Assembly: GCA_963765145.1 (NCBI GenBank) | Contig: CAVXVG010000028.1 | Location: forward strand, 32,001 to 96,000 | DNA length: 64,000 nucleotides | Origin: Parachlamydiales bacterium | GTDB lineage: Bacteria > Chlamydiota > Chlamydiia > Chlamydiales > JAJFMK01 | Direction: 5' to 3' | Part shown: positions 3,030 through 6,497 of the stretch, piece by piece | How the letters are laid out: every line of letters begins with the position of its first letter | Numbering within the stretch: position 1 is the stretch's first letter | Position numbers and translations under genes: made by a program | The notes under the pieces: generated by a model | The model's input: only the letters and a program-made list of their open reading frames with translations | What the model was told of the DNA's origin: nothing | Database searches by the model: none

Positions 3030-4523
3030 TTAAGGAAATATTATCCCCACCTGGATGCCGAAGGCGATAGCTGTTGTGTTGATAGGTCCGGAAAAGCCGT
3101 GGTCAGCTGCGGGCACCATGATCTCGTTATTGATCGGGTAATCAATGACCTCTCCACCTGGCAGAGTGATGGCAAGTGTGGGTGGTACAGCAGAAACGGG
3201 CAAGATGGGGTTGTTCTGGATACCGCATTTTGGGGTGAAGATATATTCCAAACCAACATCTGCAAACACACAGTCATTGAAATTACACCGTGCGCCTATC
3301 GAAAAGAGGTAGTGGTCATTATCAGGGATGTGCAACTCTCTTGAGCCAGATCGGATAGGGCTTTGGTCATAGGCAAAACCCATTTTGACGGTCCACATGT
3401 CACTTGCATCATATTTTGAACCGATCGCAAGAAAAAGGGTATCTTTGCCATTGATGTGAATGGTTGCCTCTCCGGTATTGAGTGTGATGATATTCTGAAT
3501 CGAAAAGGTGGTTCCGGGCGGAAAAGGGCCTGGAGGAGAAGGTATCAATGAAGGAATCAAGCTATTGATGAGTCCTAAAAACTTGGGATCTACAACAATT
3601 TGTGGAATATCAGTAAAGATACTGATTTCTTTTACCTGACTCCAAAGATTATACCCCACCGTTCCAAGCAAACTCCAGCGTCTAGAAATATCGTATTTAA
3701 AACCCCCTGTTAAAACACCCGGAGTTTTAAAGCGGCAAGAAGCTGCTGCATCATTGAATAGAAGGGAAGATGAACCCTTAAGACGGTGGGTGATCCCCGG
3801 ACGATAAGTGGCTCCAACAGTTAAAGTCGGATCGACCTCATAAAGGAAGGCCAAATTGTAGGTATTTTCCCACCCATTTAACTTGAAATAACCACCTGTA
3901 TTGATGACAGAAACGGTGAATTTGGTCTCTAAAAACTCGCGACCATAACCTACAGCAAAAGAAAGACCTCGATACCCAATGGCAATCGAAGGGTTGATTT
4001 GCACGCTTTCGATCAACGTTTGCTCTGCATATGAGGCGACGTGAGAATAGCTATAATCTGTCTCAAGACCCCATGGACAATCGACAGCAAGACCAAAAGC
4101 GAAATGGAGGTCATAATAGTGAATGGGATATACAGCATTAATCGAGGGGAAAAGAGGCCATGTGGTTCCTAGCGCCCTTTCTGCCCGAAAAGGTTGTTCA
4201 AAGGATTGCGCCGGAATGGTGGTAATCACCCCCTGCTCATAGACTAAAAGGTCGGTTAAAGAGGAAAAGCCAACCATGCTAGTAAACTCTTCTTTGATCA
4301 TGAACAAAGAACCCCCAAAACAAAGCTCGGGGTCACAAAGTTTTGTCATACCAGCAGGGTTATACCATGCTGTAGAGGCATCTGATGTCAATGCGGCCAT
4401 ATCAGCATGGGCATAGCCTAAGCTGTTGGCAGATTGAGAATAAATCTGAAAAGCAGCTCCTGATAAGGTTGCAGATGAGAGCGATAGCAGTGAAAGAGTG
4501 GTGAGAAAAGAAATACGAGACAT
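3030..4523 (-). CDS. FadL/OmpP1/TodX family outer-membrane hydrophobic compound transporter
   Basis: Signal peptide then AAFQIYSQSANSLGYA..DASTAWYNPAGM, PWGLETDY, QINPSIA, C-terminal GFAYDQSP...IPDND; contains a Pro-rich insertion. Confidence 0.9.
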   Translation of the reverse strand: MSRISFLTTLSLLSLSSATLSGAAFQIYSQSANSLGYAHADMAALTSDASTAWYNPAGMTKLCDPELCFGGSLFMIKEEFTSMVGFSSLTDLLVYEQGVITTIPAQSFEQPFRAERALGTTWPLFPSINAVYPIHYYDLHFAFGLAVDCPWGLETDYSYSHVASYAEQTLIESVQINPSIAIGYRGLSFAVGYGREFLETKFTVSVINTGGYFKLNGWENTYNLAFLYEVDPTLTVGATYRPGITHRLKGSSSLLFNDAAASCRFKTPGVLTGGFKYDISRRWSLLGTVGYNLWSQVKEISIFTDIPQIVVDPKFLGLINSLIPSLIPSPPGPFPPGTTFSIQNIITLNTGEATIHINGKDTLFLAIGSKYDASDMWTVKMGFAYDQSPIRSGSRELHIPDNDHYLFSIGARCNFNDCVFADVGLEYIFTPKCGIQNNPILPVSAVPPTLAITLPGGEVIDYPINNEIMVPAADHGFSGPINTTAIAFGIQVGIIFP

Positions 4524-4573
4524 AGCGTTTGACTACCATTAGAGGGTCAAAAAGAATGTGCCTCAGCTCTCCT

Positions 4574-5266
4574 TTATTCTTCAAAGCTTTTTTTCGATAG
4601 AGTTCCAAAGAGTCGATCGAAGATAGGCATGAATAACGCGTAATTGGTTAAAAACTCAGAGTGGTGCTTCTCATGATACTCAGGACTATAGACAAACCAC
4701 CTAACCACCGATTTTTTATACCATTTACCCTCTAATTTAACGTTAAAATGGCCAAAGCTATTCAAAAGATCGAATAGCAAAAAGAAAGCCAAAACAGCCC
4801 AGTAGTTAAACAGGCCAAAAAGAAAGGCGACAAGAGGTGGTATCGCAAACAAAAGCGTGTAGCTGATCCTTTCAAGGAGGGTAAAACTCATTGAAGTCGT
4901 CGCCATTGTCCGCACCGAACGGTGATGATAAATGTGGTGATTTCGATAGATCCAGCCTGTATGGAGAAGAAGGTGAAAGCCATAATAGAGGGGCTCCACA
5001 AGGACAACATGGGCTGCCAACATCACTAAAAAAGAGGCCCAAAATCCACCTGCAAAAAGAGAAATGTCTGCAACAGAGACAAAAGCCGCTAATGCCAACG
5101 TATCTAAGATCAAGCCCAAAGGCCACATACTTTCTCTGTCTTTCTGGCTTTGCTTGACCTCTTCAGGATTAATGTGATGTTTGAAAAATTTAGGTATCCA
5201 TAACATCACAAACATCAACAGGTATCGAGTTGCAAAAAACAATATGATGTAAAACAAATTAGACAT
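4574..5266 (-). CDS. Fatty-acid hydroxylase/sterol desaturase superfamily membrane di-iron enzyme, CER1/CER3-like
   Basis: His boxes HLLLH, HIYHH, GH, HEKHH; context EPLYYGFH, LLFAIP, FDLLNSFGHFN, YSPEYHEKHH, TNYALFMPIFD. Confidence 0.85.
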   Translation of the reverse strand: MSNLFYIILFFATRYLLMFVMLWIPKFFKHHINPEEVKQSQKDRESMWPLGLILDTLALAAFVSVADISLFAGGFWASFLVMLAAHVVLVEPLYYGFHLLLHTGWIYRNHHIYHHRSVRTMATTSMSFTLLERISYTLLFAIPPLVAFLFGLFNYWAVLAFFLLFDLLNSFGHFNVKLEGKWYKKSVVRWFVYSPEYHEKHHSEFLTNYALFMPIFDRLFGTLSKKSFEE

Positions 5267-6440
5267 CTTCTTCTACCCCTTCTTTTTTACGGCCATATTT
5301 TTCATGCGCATCGGCAAACTCATCTCCTTTGACAATCGCAAGTCCAAGAGAAATTTCTAACGCAAGGGCACAAGCTGCGACAATTTCAGCAAATTTCTTC
5401 ACACCGTTTTCGCCTGCACACCCCAACATTTGTAGATTTTCATTTTGATCTTTTAAACGGGTACCACCACCTACTGTTCCAATAGTGATGGAAGGCAATG
5501 TGATAGTCGCTTCATATGAACCATCTGGATGAGCTTCTGATGTGAAGATAGCCCCCGCATTTTCTGCAACGCAAGCCACATCTTGCCCTGTGGCTAAATA
5601 AATCCCAGCCAACGCATTTGCGGTATGTAAGTTATGGCCACTGAGACCTGCAAGCGAAGAGCCTAACATCGCCACCTCTCCTGCTTGTAAAACAGTTAAA
5701 GGATCGACCTTGAGAACTTTACGCCCCAACTTTTCAGGCATTCTGACTGAAGCAGTCGCAGAATGTCCTCGCCCTTTGATGATATTTCTAGAACAAGCGT
5801 TTTTATCACCGCTAAAATTGGATTCAATTAAAAATGTGACAGGTATTGTCTCTTGCAGTGCCTCTTGGATATAGTTGGCAGCCGCTTGTGTGGCTTTTGT
5901 CACCATATTTTGACCGGCTGCGTCTCCTGTTGTATAAATAAAATCTAATAAGACCTTTCTACCCATTAAATAGGGGTCGATTTTGAGCAATTTTCCATAA
6001 CGGGTAGTTGACTCTGCAACAGCCTTGATTTTTGCAAACTTTTCTTGGATAAATCTTAAAAATTCAGCGCCATCTTTCAGTGAAGGGAGAAAAAAGACAG
6101 GAGTCCGAGGCATCTCTTGTTTTAAATATTGGGCTTTAACTCCACCAGCAAGATTGCAAAGGTAAGCGCCCCTTGTAAGAGAGATCGACAACGTCCCTTC
6201 GACTGTTGAAAAAGGGATGATATATTCCCCTTGAGCAAATTGGCCGTCGATTAAAATGGGGCCACAAAGGGCAAGAGGCATTTTCACAAAACCGATAGGA
6301 TTTTCTACAATTCCTTGTAGATCCTCATCCATCCAACGTTTTTTTGGATCAAAGGTTGTGCCCATTCGATCATTGACCCACTCAATCCTTTTTTCAAACG
6401 AAGGATAATCGTAACCTGTTGGCGGTCTTTTACTAGACAT
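5259..6440 (-). CDS. Class I-type (NADPH) HMG-CoA reductase family protein
   Basis: ENPIG, PFSTVEG, DAAGQNM, SNFSGDK, ATGQD, IGTVGGGT and C-terminal His (AHEKYGR); stop overlaps the next gene's ATG. Confidence 0.92.
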   Translation of the reverse strand: MSSKRPPTGYDYPSFEKRIEWVNDRMGTTFDPKKRWMDEDLQGIVENPIGFVKMPLALCGPILIDGQFAQGEYIIPFSTVEGTLSISLTRGAYLCNLAGGVKAQYLKQEMPRTPVFFLPSLKDGAEFLRFIQEKFAKIKAVAESTTRYGKLLKIDPYLMGRKVLLDFIYTTGDAAGQNMVTKATQAAANYIQEALQETIPVTFLIESNFSGDKNACSRNIIKGRGHSATASVRMPEKLGRKVLKVDPLTVLQAGEVAMLGSSLAGLSGHNLHTANALAGIYLATGQDVACVAENAGAIFTSEAHPDGSYEATITLPSITIGTVGGGTRLKDQNENLQMLGCAGENGVKKFAEIVAACALALEISLGLAIVKGDEFADAHEKYGRKKEGVEEDV

Positions 6441-6468
6441 CTATTCTACTCACACTATTTAACGAGTA

Positions 6469-6497
6469 ATTATAACAGGAGTGAACCCAAAAGACAA
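6469..6497 (-). promoter_or_regulatory. sigma70/sigma66-type promoter for the HMGR cassette
   Basis: Minus strand TTGTCT-17 nt-TATAAT with TG extended -10, about 28 nt upstream of the ATG at 6440. Confidence 0.7.

Follow-up and report, generated by a model that had tools for sequence, protein, structure and literature searches.

A gene of the HMG-CoA reductase (HMGR; HMG, 3-hydroxy-3-methylglutaryl) family lies directly ahead of genes for a CER1-like His-box membrane enzyme and a FadL-type outer-membrane channel in a 64-kb stretch of DNA from a Parachlamydiales bacterium (contig CAVXVG010000028.1; the whole stretch is called the window below). This arrangement raises the question of what an enzyme with the HMGR fold does in such company. 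The assembly from which the window comes (G000) has 2.68 Mb in 37 contigs and is 84.8% complete. From their sequences and arrangement, the three genes are predicted to form an operon in which the first encodes an FcrA-like fatty acyl-CoA reductase, the second a CER1-like enzyme, and the third the FadL channel, and they likely convert fatty acids to hydrocarbons or to a related reduced lipid. A more specific reading, that the cassette is a split, plant-like route to hydrocarbons in which acyl reduction is followed by a di-iron step and FadL serves uptake or export, is held here with middling confidence. A preliminary description of the window had placed three co-oriented genes behind a TTGTCT-17-TATAAT promoter, with the reductase stop overlapping the start of the His-box gene. 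Both observations were reproduced: all three genes are on the minus strand with the site at 6497-6469, and the stop of the P0001 gene and the start of the P0002 gene share 8 nt in ATGTCTAA. The P0003 gene begins 50 nt past the end of the P0002 gene.

Features of the cassette and its flanks, in coordinates of the window
Feature	Position	Strand	Details
FcrA-like fatty acyl-CoA reductase (HMGR class-I fold), P0001, predicted	5259..6440	-	393 aa; PF00368 HMG-CoA_red 1.3e-98
Stand-alone CER1/CER3-like di-iron His-box membrane enzyme, P0002, predicted	4574..5266	-	230 aa; PF04116 FA_hydroxylase 1.9e-21
FadL/TodX/OmpP1-family outer-membrane channel, P0003	3030..4523	-	497 aa; PF03349 FadL/TodX 5.3e-45
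Sigma-70-like promoter TTGTCT-17-TATAAT with TG-extended -10 (putative)	6469..6497	-	10/12 positions match
Palindromic repeat element between lpxD stop and cassette promoter	6500..6606	.	inverted arms 6500-6527 / 6573-6606
Second palindromic element, same arm type, directly past FadL stop	2922..3035	.	arms 2922-2954 / 3003-3035

The catalytic Glu46, Lys213, Asp287, and His379 are all retained in P0001, as had been noted previously, and its closest solved relative was the archaeal class-I HMGR 6hr7 (4.8e-75). The protein scored 290.8 bits against TIGR00533, for which the cut-off is 441.8, and thus fell below equivalog level. The position of human Ser684 is occupied by Glu206 in P0001 (IESNFSGDK aligned to the Ser of SGN..DKK), and the position of human Lys735 is a gap or Ala, versus NxKKN in canonical chlamydial class-I enzymes. 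The position of human Leu862, four residues before the catalytic His, is Phe375 (EFADAH379). At this last position Leu was found in the 6 canonical rows of the alignment, and Phe or Trp in 36 of the 37 signature rows, with Leu in one. The pocket lysine printed as "Lys795" in the paper that described FcrA is presumably Lys735, by count on the human sequence. In a tree, the 37 signature-bearing rows, including P0001, were separated from 6 canonical chlamydial class-I HMGRs with a Shimodaira-Hasegawa-like approximate likelihood ratio test (SH-aLRT) value of 100. This tree was built without the reference FcrA sequences (Pb-FcrA and Np-FcrA), and the census of reductases did not include the short contigs L041 (1.9 kb) and L042 (1.0 kb) or L111-L121, which were partial matches of 27-40% identity. 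Among the 6 canonical class-I rows, the one from G067 was checked, and its HMGR gene adjoins an HMG-CoA synthase gene.

The residue changes in P0001 are those reported for FcrA, which was described as a monophyletic branch that arose from class-I HMGR (Grossi et al., ISME J 2025, PMC11948995). According to the available text of that paper, FcrA keeps the catalytic tetrad Glu559/Lys691/Asp767/His866, whereas Ser684 is exchanged for Glu, the conserved pocket Lys for a small residue, and Leu862 for a bulky residue. The same text reports that FcrA is found in bacteria without a mevalonate pathway and that the enzyme converts acyl-CoA of C14 or longer to the alcohol, does not use HMG-CoA, and is insensitive to statins; Pb-FcrA was inactive on HMG-CoA, and the purified protein yielded fatty alcohol and did not reduce free C16:1 aldehyde (PMC11948995). 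P0001 carries every one of the sequence marks and is predicted to be a fatty acyl-CoA reductase of the FcrA type that likely belongs to the monophyletic clade of the paper. The earlier naming of the gene product as an HMG-CoA reductase had to be given up in view of these marks, the TIGR00533 score, and the lack of mevalonate genes around it.

A homology search with P0001 recovered a large bacterial subfamily of proteins of ∼384 aa with the same motif, including sequences from metagenome-assembled genomes (MAGs) of Verrucomicrobiota, Planctomycetota, and Ignavibacteriales. One of these relatives, P0034, which is 50% identical to P0001, heads a row of genes for an acyltransferase, an AGPS-like FAD oxidase, and a short-chain dehydrogenase/reductase (SDR), an ether-lipid gene set. 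P0034 sits where a supplier of fatty alcohol is expected, which was counted in favor of an FcrA-type function. A row of this type was located in an Ignavibacteriales genome (L138, G502:C1:4569000-4588999, 6389-10817, minus strand; FcrA-like, PF01553 acyltransferase, AGPS-like FAD oxidase, SDR). When the class of G502 was searched, the close FcrA subtype was found in G502 only, and the 3 other genomes with matches had 34-39% relatives.

Consistent with this assignment, the preliminary statement that the window holds no HMG-CoA synthase, mevalonate kinase, or decarboxylase could be extended to the genome: searches of the window and of all of the 84.8%-complete G000 found no HMG-CoA synthase, mevalonate kinase, or diphosphomevalonate decarboxylase. 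The solitary "HMGR" can therefore have no role in a mevalonate pathway. A check of the mevalonate route against the methylerythritol phosphate route, which had been proposed, detected neither in G000, in which IspH, IspG, DXR, or a DXS above the cut-off were not found. The outcome was the same for the genes searched in the sister genome G304 (1 contig, 94% complete), in which neither IspH nor DXR was found, nor mevalonate kinase or a genuine HMG-CoA synthase. UppS was found in each of the three genomes that represent the genus, UppP is encoded at 50262-51068 and MqnC at 10776-11903 of the window, and menaquinone genes are kept. These results suggest that G000 and G304 depend on isoprenoid precursors from the host. 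Such dependence has reportedly been described for Rickettsia parkeri. The third genome of the genus, G715 (88% complete, 6% contamination), does carry DXR.

In other chlamydial genomes, proteins with PF00368 (loci L006-L010, L012-L023, and L027) were of four kinds. Canonical class-I enzymes were found in all 8 genomes of family f18; in the sampled G067 the gene is beside that for HMG-CoA synthase and IspH was not found. A class-II enzyme is encoded in a mevalonate cluster in G044, and in both G067 and G044 the HMGR gene is inside a mevalonate gene cluster while IspH was not found. The third kind is a lone FcrA-signature gene with DKK; the sampled G190 and G377 have IspH plus the lone HMGR-like gene, and glycosyltransferase genes adjoin it in L006 and L007. 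The fourth is the DKN type, as in the window.

The second gene product, P0002, had been described as a CER1-like enzyme that lacks the WAX2 reductase-like domain, and the description was accurate in both respects. The 230-aa chain contains PF04116 alone, with no C-terminal CER1-like_C (WAX2) domain, and P0002 is therefore considered a stand-alone relative rather than a strict member of the CER1/CER3 family. Its His motifs (H98/H102, H111/H114/H115, and H198/H201/H202) are invariant in the alignment of the short subfamily and align to those of a marine CER1/3-type open reading frame (ORF), to whose product P0002 was 32% identical over 204 aa by BLASTP (E = 1e-26). A word-based search returned only 15 relatives of P0002, and pattern scans made with an alignment of its relatives returned 13 genome loci and 79 metagenome loci. 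Fifty-seven loci (L054-L110; 31-36% identity) lie inside ORFs of 620 to 700 aa with FA_hydroxylase and CER1-like_C regions, and PF04116 and PF12076 were both present in all five that were tested.

The bias of the pattern scans was removed with an exhaustive phmmer search of P0002 over 1.84 billion representatives, which gave 882 matches at E ≤1e-3. In the ranking, the short subfamily extended down to ∼1e-33 and was followed mostly by proteins of 550 to 760 aa. PF12076 (CER1-like_C) is carried by 29 of the 46 matches of ≥400 aa, 3 of which also have Cyt-b5. Long matches included P0164 from Zingiber (ginger), which is named "very-long-chain aldehyde decarbonylase GL1-6-like" (E = 6.5e-28, 37% identity to P0002), and another from the alga Aureococcus. 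In a tree of 146 rows, the short subfamily (30 rows) and a CER1/3-like clade (73 rows) fell within a clade of 105 rows (SH-aLRT, 98), with 36 generic short FA_hydroxylases outside it. Thus, phmmer, Pfam, and the tree all placed CER1/CER3-type proteins nearest to P0002 beyond its own short subfamily, and by these comparisons P0002 is closer to the N-terminal domains of CER1/3 than to other FA_hydroxylase subfamilies. A PDB sequence search with the His-box profile gave no match at E ≤1, no NCBIfam family was matched by P0002, and the protein atlas offered only generic "sterol desaturase family" clusters for its family. According to the available text of PMC13326499, hydrocarbons are made from acyl-CoA by CER1/CER3 in plants and by CER1/3 in algae, with the His motifs being essential and the C-terminal domain being the reductase part.

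The short His-box subfamily is linked to acyl-thioester reductases in other bacteria. Of the 19 loci examined for short relatives outside the chlamydiae (L031-L040 and L045-L053), 11 have a gene for a PF07993 "male sterility" thioester reductase within ∼3 kb. That gene is directly upstream and co-oriented in a gammaproteobacterium (L031) and in six Nitrospirales loci (L032, L033, L034, L036, L037, and L048), the six being closely related to one another and taken as a single lineage. In L039 the PF07993 gene is convergent, and a FadL gene also adjoins. In L045 a gene for a 1046-aa protein with AMP-binding and reductase regions, a fusion of fatty acyl-AMP ligase (FAAL) and reductase (R), overlaps the start of the His-box gene, and the pair is between LpxA-like and ArnT-like genes. 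FAAL, acyl carrier protein (ACP)-ACP-R, and phosphopantetheinyl transferase (PPTase) genes are directly past the His-box gene in L049, and a ketosynthase/ketosynthase/FabA-like/ACP/reductase set adjoins it in L040. No reductase was found in the other 8 loci, of which 5 are on contigs of ≤2.4 kb and 2 carry the His-box gene close to or at a contig end; L050 alone had room on both sides and yet no reductase. Furthermore, PF07993 and PF04116 are fused in a single chain in P0193 (664 aa; five cluster members). The His-box clade is thus joined to a thioester reductase in three ways: to a fused PF12076, to an adjacent or fused PF07993, and to an adjacent FcrA. PF12076 and PF07993 are of the Rossmann type, whereas FcrA has the HMGR fold. 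Elsewhere the short subfamily is beside PF07993 reductases, and the chlamydial operon therefore swaps in a reductase of the HMGR fold.

The HMGR family was detected in 22 of 401 sampled chlamydial genomes, among which G304 alone shares the His-box and FadL neighbors. Strong matches to P0002 were restricted to G000 and G304 in the same 401 genomes, four others giving E values of 2.8e-12 or worse, and G715 (88% complete) had no match. The full triad, with the same 8-nt overlap, was found in L030 (the record of G304), L043, and L044, in which the His-box proteins are 79-97% identical; a conserved adjacency of the HMGR-family and His-box genes, which the preliminary description had proposed to look for, exists to this extent. 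Candidate pairs among more distant relatives were suggested by proteins from contigs of equal length and source, namely P0013 with P0023 (2035 bp), P0009 with P0145 (5681 bp), and P0005 with P0144 (7438 bp). The FadL gene is kept behind the His-box gene in L030, L043, and L044. In P0003 the PF03349 match covers residues 17 to 438, and a hydrophobic N terminus resembling a signal peptide is followed by AAFQ, which we take to be like the mature start of E. coli FadL.

In the proposed pathway, a long-chain acyl thioester would be reduced with NADPH by P0001. The thioester could be an acyl-CoA, possibly from the host, or an acyl-ACP, which an Aas-like enzyme could supply from an imported fatty acid. 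P0002 would then act on the reduced carbon with O2 and an electron donor, either by intercepting an aldehyde-level intermediate handed over within a complex or by first oxidizing the alcohol (CH2OH to CHO), a reaction known from ERG25-type enzymes of the superfamily. A Cn-1 alkane or alkene, like those released by plant CER1 or algal CER1/3, would result and would end up in the bacterial envelope, with FadL bringing the fatty substrate in, or taking the product out, across the outer membrane. That the reductase feeds the CER1-like enzyme in place of the missing WAX2 domain, as was proposed in the preliminary description, agrees with the comparative evidence, i.e., the FcrA signature, the CER1/3 kinship, and the reductase linkage of the subfamily. 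The apparent lack of another sink for a fatty alcohol was also counted in favor of hydrocarbons. TIGR02946 (wax ester synthase/diacylglycerol acyltransferase, WS/DGAT) was matched in none of the 3 genomes of the genus, and in a search of the genome for an ether-lipid sink the AGPS-like query from G502 gave only a weak match at 21% identity and the acyltransferase query gave none. A 624-aa FAD oxidase of G000 was considered as an AGPS candidate and rejected as GlcD-like.

Several observations weigh against this pathway. FcrA beside the His-box gene was directly seen in four closely related loci only; that the pairing reaches relatives at ∼50% identity is suggested by the matching contig sizes and sources. 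The reductase and His-box trees were quick LG+G4 trees of short domains, without bootstraps. G000 and G304 each encode only two AMP-binding proteins, an acetyl-CoA synthetase and an Aas-like acyl-ACP synthetase, and a long-chain acyl-CoA ligase was not found in either, so that the source of long-chain acyl-CoA is not evident. No electron donor (cytochrome b5 in plants) turned up, although no search for b5 or ferredoxin was made. We know of no bacterial member of the short His-box subfamily with an established product. The proposal that the reductase feeds the CER1-like enzyme is challenged by the characterized enzyme itself: in the available text of PMC11948995, Pb-FcrA gives the alcohol and does not act on free C16:1 aldehyde. 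One would therefore not expect free aldehyde to be available to a CER1-type step, and coupling of the two enzymes needs an extra assumption. A prediction of the P0001-P0002 complex (score 0.00, controls not run) speaks neither for nor against the pathway.

The behavior of Pb-FcrA would also fit if the FcrA-like enzyme made a fatty alcohol and the His-box enzyme hydroxylated or desaturated that alcohol or a lipid derived from it; an unsaturated alcohol or a diol with a long chain could then be formed, or else a lipid of the ether or vinyl-ether type. Most of the FA_hydroxylase superfamily hydroxylates or desaturates, as do FA2H, SUR2, ERG3, and ERG25, and the glycosyltransferase genes that adjoin some relatives (PMT_2 in L045, MGDG_synth-like in L050) would be in keeping with a glycolipid whose aglycone is an alcohol or diol. 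However, the nearest characterized relatives of P0002 are decarbonylases rather than hydroxylases, the hydroxylase subfamilies fell outside the 105-row clade, and the G502 query revealed no AGPS-like gene in the genome; an oxygenated lipid is thus a possible but, on balance, doubtful product. The direction of the pathway could also be the reverse, with FadL importing alkyl lipids, alcohols, or aldehydes from the host, which the His-box enzyme would cleave or oxidize in the manner of an alkylglycerol monooxygenase, and the HMGR-fold enzyme running backward from aldehyde to acyl-CoA. FadL channels are known importers, HMGR can catalyze the oxidative acylation of mevaldehyde, and this host-dependent chlamydia appears to rely on isoprenoid precursors from the host. 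Yet the partner reductases elsewhere are linked to FAAL-ACP-R and PPTase genes and are clearly biosynthetic, no beta-oxidation context is visible in the window, and FcrA was inactive on free aldehyde in the available text of PMC11948995, all of which make salvage improbable.

Two further explanations were considered. The His-box enzyme might modify host sterols or another polycyclic lipid, in the style of a sterol desaturase or methyl oxidase, with a functionally unrelated reductase next to it. The automatic family names ("sterol desaturase family protein") and the preliminary description, which gave this as its alternative, point that way, but a single operon is indicated by the 8-nt overlap and by conservation of the triad, and the sequence neighbors of P0002 are CER1/3 rather than generic short FA_hydroxylases. 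Its relatives link to acyl-thioester reductases and not to sterol genes, although no search was aimed at squalene or sterol cyclase genes. No support was found for sterol modification, and it seems very unlikely. It is hardly credible that the first gene encodes a true HMG-CoA reductase, as a remnant of or contributor to a mevalonate pathway that acts, for example, on host HMG-CoA or mevalonate. The strong PF00368 match and the intact catalytic residues would allow it, and a genome without its own routes to isopentenyl diphosphate could possibly use host intermediates. Against this, Ser684 and Lys735, which bind the carboxylate of HMG, are exchanged as in FcrA, Pb-FcrA does not reduce HMG-CoA in the available text of PMC11948995, the synthase, kinase, and decarboxylase for mevalonate use were not found in G000, and the TIGR00533 score is under its cut-off.

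The cassette is flanked by mqnC, bamA, and lpxD upstream and by rtcB downstream. The region 2700-6800 contains 7 promoter-like sites versus 6.8 ± 2.2 in shuffled sequences, a number not above chance; TGTTATAAT is kept ∼30 nt 5' of the ATG in 3 of 4 related loci. Among public sequencing runs, no RNA run was listed as containing this DNA, and the DNA runs that contain it have shares of ≤0.17. Both flanking palindromes (2922-3035 and 6500-6606) are built on GGGCAA-like hexamer arms, and the arm is dispersed throughout the genome, with 133 blastn-short high-scoring segment pairs on many contigs. The two elements may be terminators or marks of insertion boundaries; the one at 2922-3035 is likely a terminator or boundary.

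Other features of the window were also recorded. A plasma-membrane-type (IIIA) proton-efflux P-type ATPase is split between ORFs at 23009-24322 and 24319-25410 on the minus strand, which overlap by 4 nt and match positions 1-341 and 346-755 of TIGR01647; the split may come from a frameshift or an error in the sequence, or the gene may be broken. At 655-1383 (minus strand), adjoining the gene for the RtcB RNA ligase, a 242-aa ORF contains CdiI_3, an immunity domain of contact-dependent inhibition (CDI; 1.2e-22), and, toward its C terminus, a region resembling ScpB (2.2e-06). At 19740-22433, fabF is followed by an alpha-oxoamine synthase gene whose product is below the cut-off for BioF (1.8e-92) and for serine palmitoyltransferase (9.6e-63) and which could be a sphingolipid-type or a biotin gene. 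At 28763-32428, the ORF for a resistance-nodulation-division (RND) efflux permease begins at model position 114; two short ORFs precede it, genes for a periplasmic adaptor and an outer-membrane factor follow, and the 5' part of the permease gene may be frameshifted.

If the hydrocarbon reading is correct, a new class of lipid would be added to the chlamydial envelope. A bolder proposal, which we consider more probably wrong than right, is that bacteria hold an unfused, ancestral form of the CER1/CER3 hydrocarbon synthase, in which a small di-iron decarbonylase is paired with at least three families of acyl-thioester reductases. In this chlamydia the partner would have the HMGR fold and alkanes would be made from (host) fatty acids for its own envelope, and the eukaryotic enzyme may derive from the fusion of such a pair. 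A fusion of pre-existing domains has reportedly been proposed as the origin of CER1/CER3. A bacterial stand-alone relative of CER1 beside thioester reductases offers a small system, expressible in E. coli, for study of the poorly understood decarbonylase mechanism, and the chlamydial operon, with its exchanged reductase, is a natural experiment on whether a partner dedicated to forming the aldehyde is required by the di-iron enzyme. The uses of FcrA would be widened beyond wax esters and ether lipids. For annotation, a bacterial "HMG-CoA reductase" should not be taken as evidence of a mevalonate pathway.

Among known systems, the cyanobacterial alkane pathway of acyl-ACP reductase (AAR) and aldehyde-deformylating oxygenase (ADO) resembles the cassette in that an acyl thioester is reduced and the aldehyde is then deformylated by a di-iron enzyme. 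However, neither is homologous to the cassette proteins, AAR being another kind of reductase and ADO a soluble di-iron protein of the ferritin-like type. P0001 is like the FcrA proteins of Ca. Promineifilum breve (Pb-FcrA) and N. pharaonis in its fold, its catalytic tetrad, the Ser684-to-Glu exchange, the loss of the Lys735 salt bridge, and the bulky residue at Leu862, as well as in being encoded in a genome without the mevalonate pathway. Unlike FcrA in the available text of PMC11948995, it has no N-terminal Lad or ACP domain, and it is partnered with a CER1-like di-iron enzyme and FadL, whereas the partners described there are WS/DGAT, a PlsC-like protein, or AGPS. Words beginning with "Chlamydi" and the terms "hydroxylase" and "sterol desaturase" do not occur in the main text of that paper.

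The plant CER1/CER3 complex and the algal bifunctional CER1/3 (PF04116 plus PF12076) are the closest named relatives of P0002, at 32-37% identity with all His motifs, and the logic of an acyl-thioester reductase joined to a di-iron enzyme is shared. The cassette differs in that P0002 is a short chain without CER1-like_C, the reductase is separate and of the HMGR fold, and the predicted setting is the envelope of a bacterium that has a FadL channel. The bacterial pairs of PF07993 with short CER1-like proteins (MAGs of Nitrospirales and Gammaproteobacteria) have the same His-box subfamily, at 35-47% identity, beside a thioester reductase, and L039 shares the FadL gene. In these pairs the reductase is of the Rossmann "male sterility" type, sometimes as FAAL-ACP-R, whereas the chlamydial cassette has an FcrA of the HMGR fold. 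In the literature found, membrane di-iron alkane-forming enzymes were those of plants and algae only (CER1/CER3), as far as the available text of PMC13326499 goes. Our literature search, judged mostly by title or abstract, turned up no paper on a bacterial system of a CER1-like enzyme and a reductase or on a link between FcrA and the hydroxylase family. FcrA itself (since 2025) and CER1/CER3 in plants and algae are already known; the combination of FcrA, a CER1-like enzyme, and FadL, the exchange for a reductase of the HMGR fold, and the presence of FadL in the chlamydial operon are, as far as this search shows, new.

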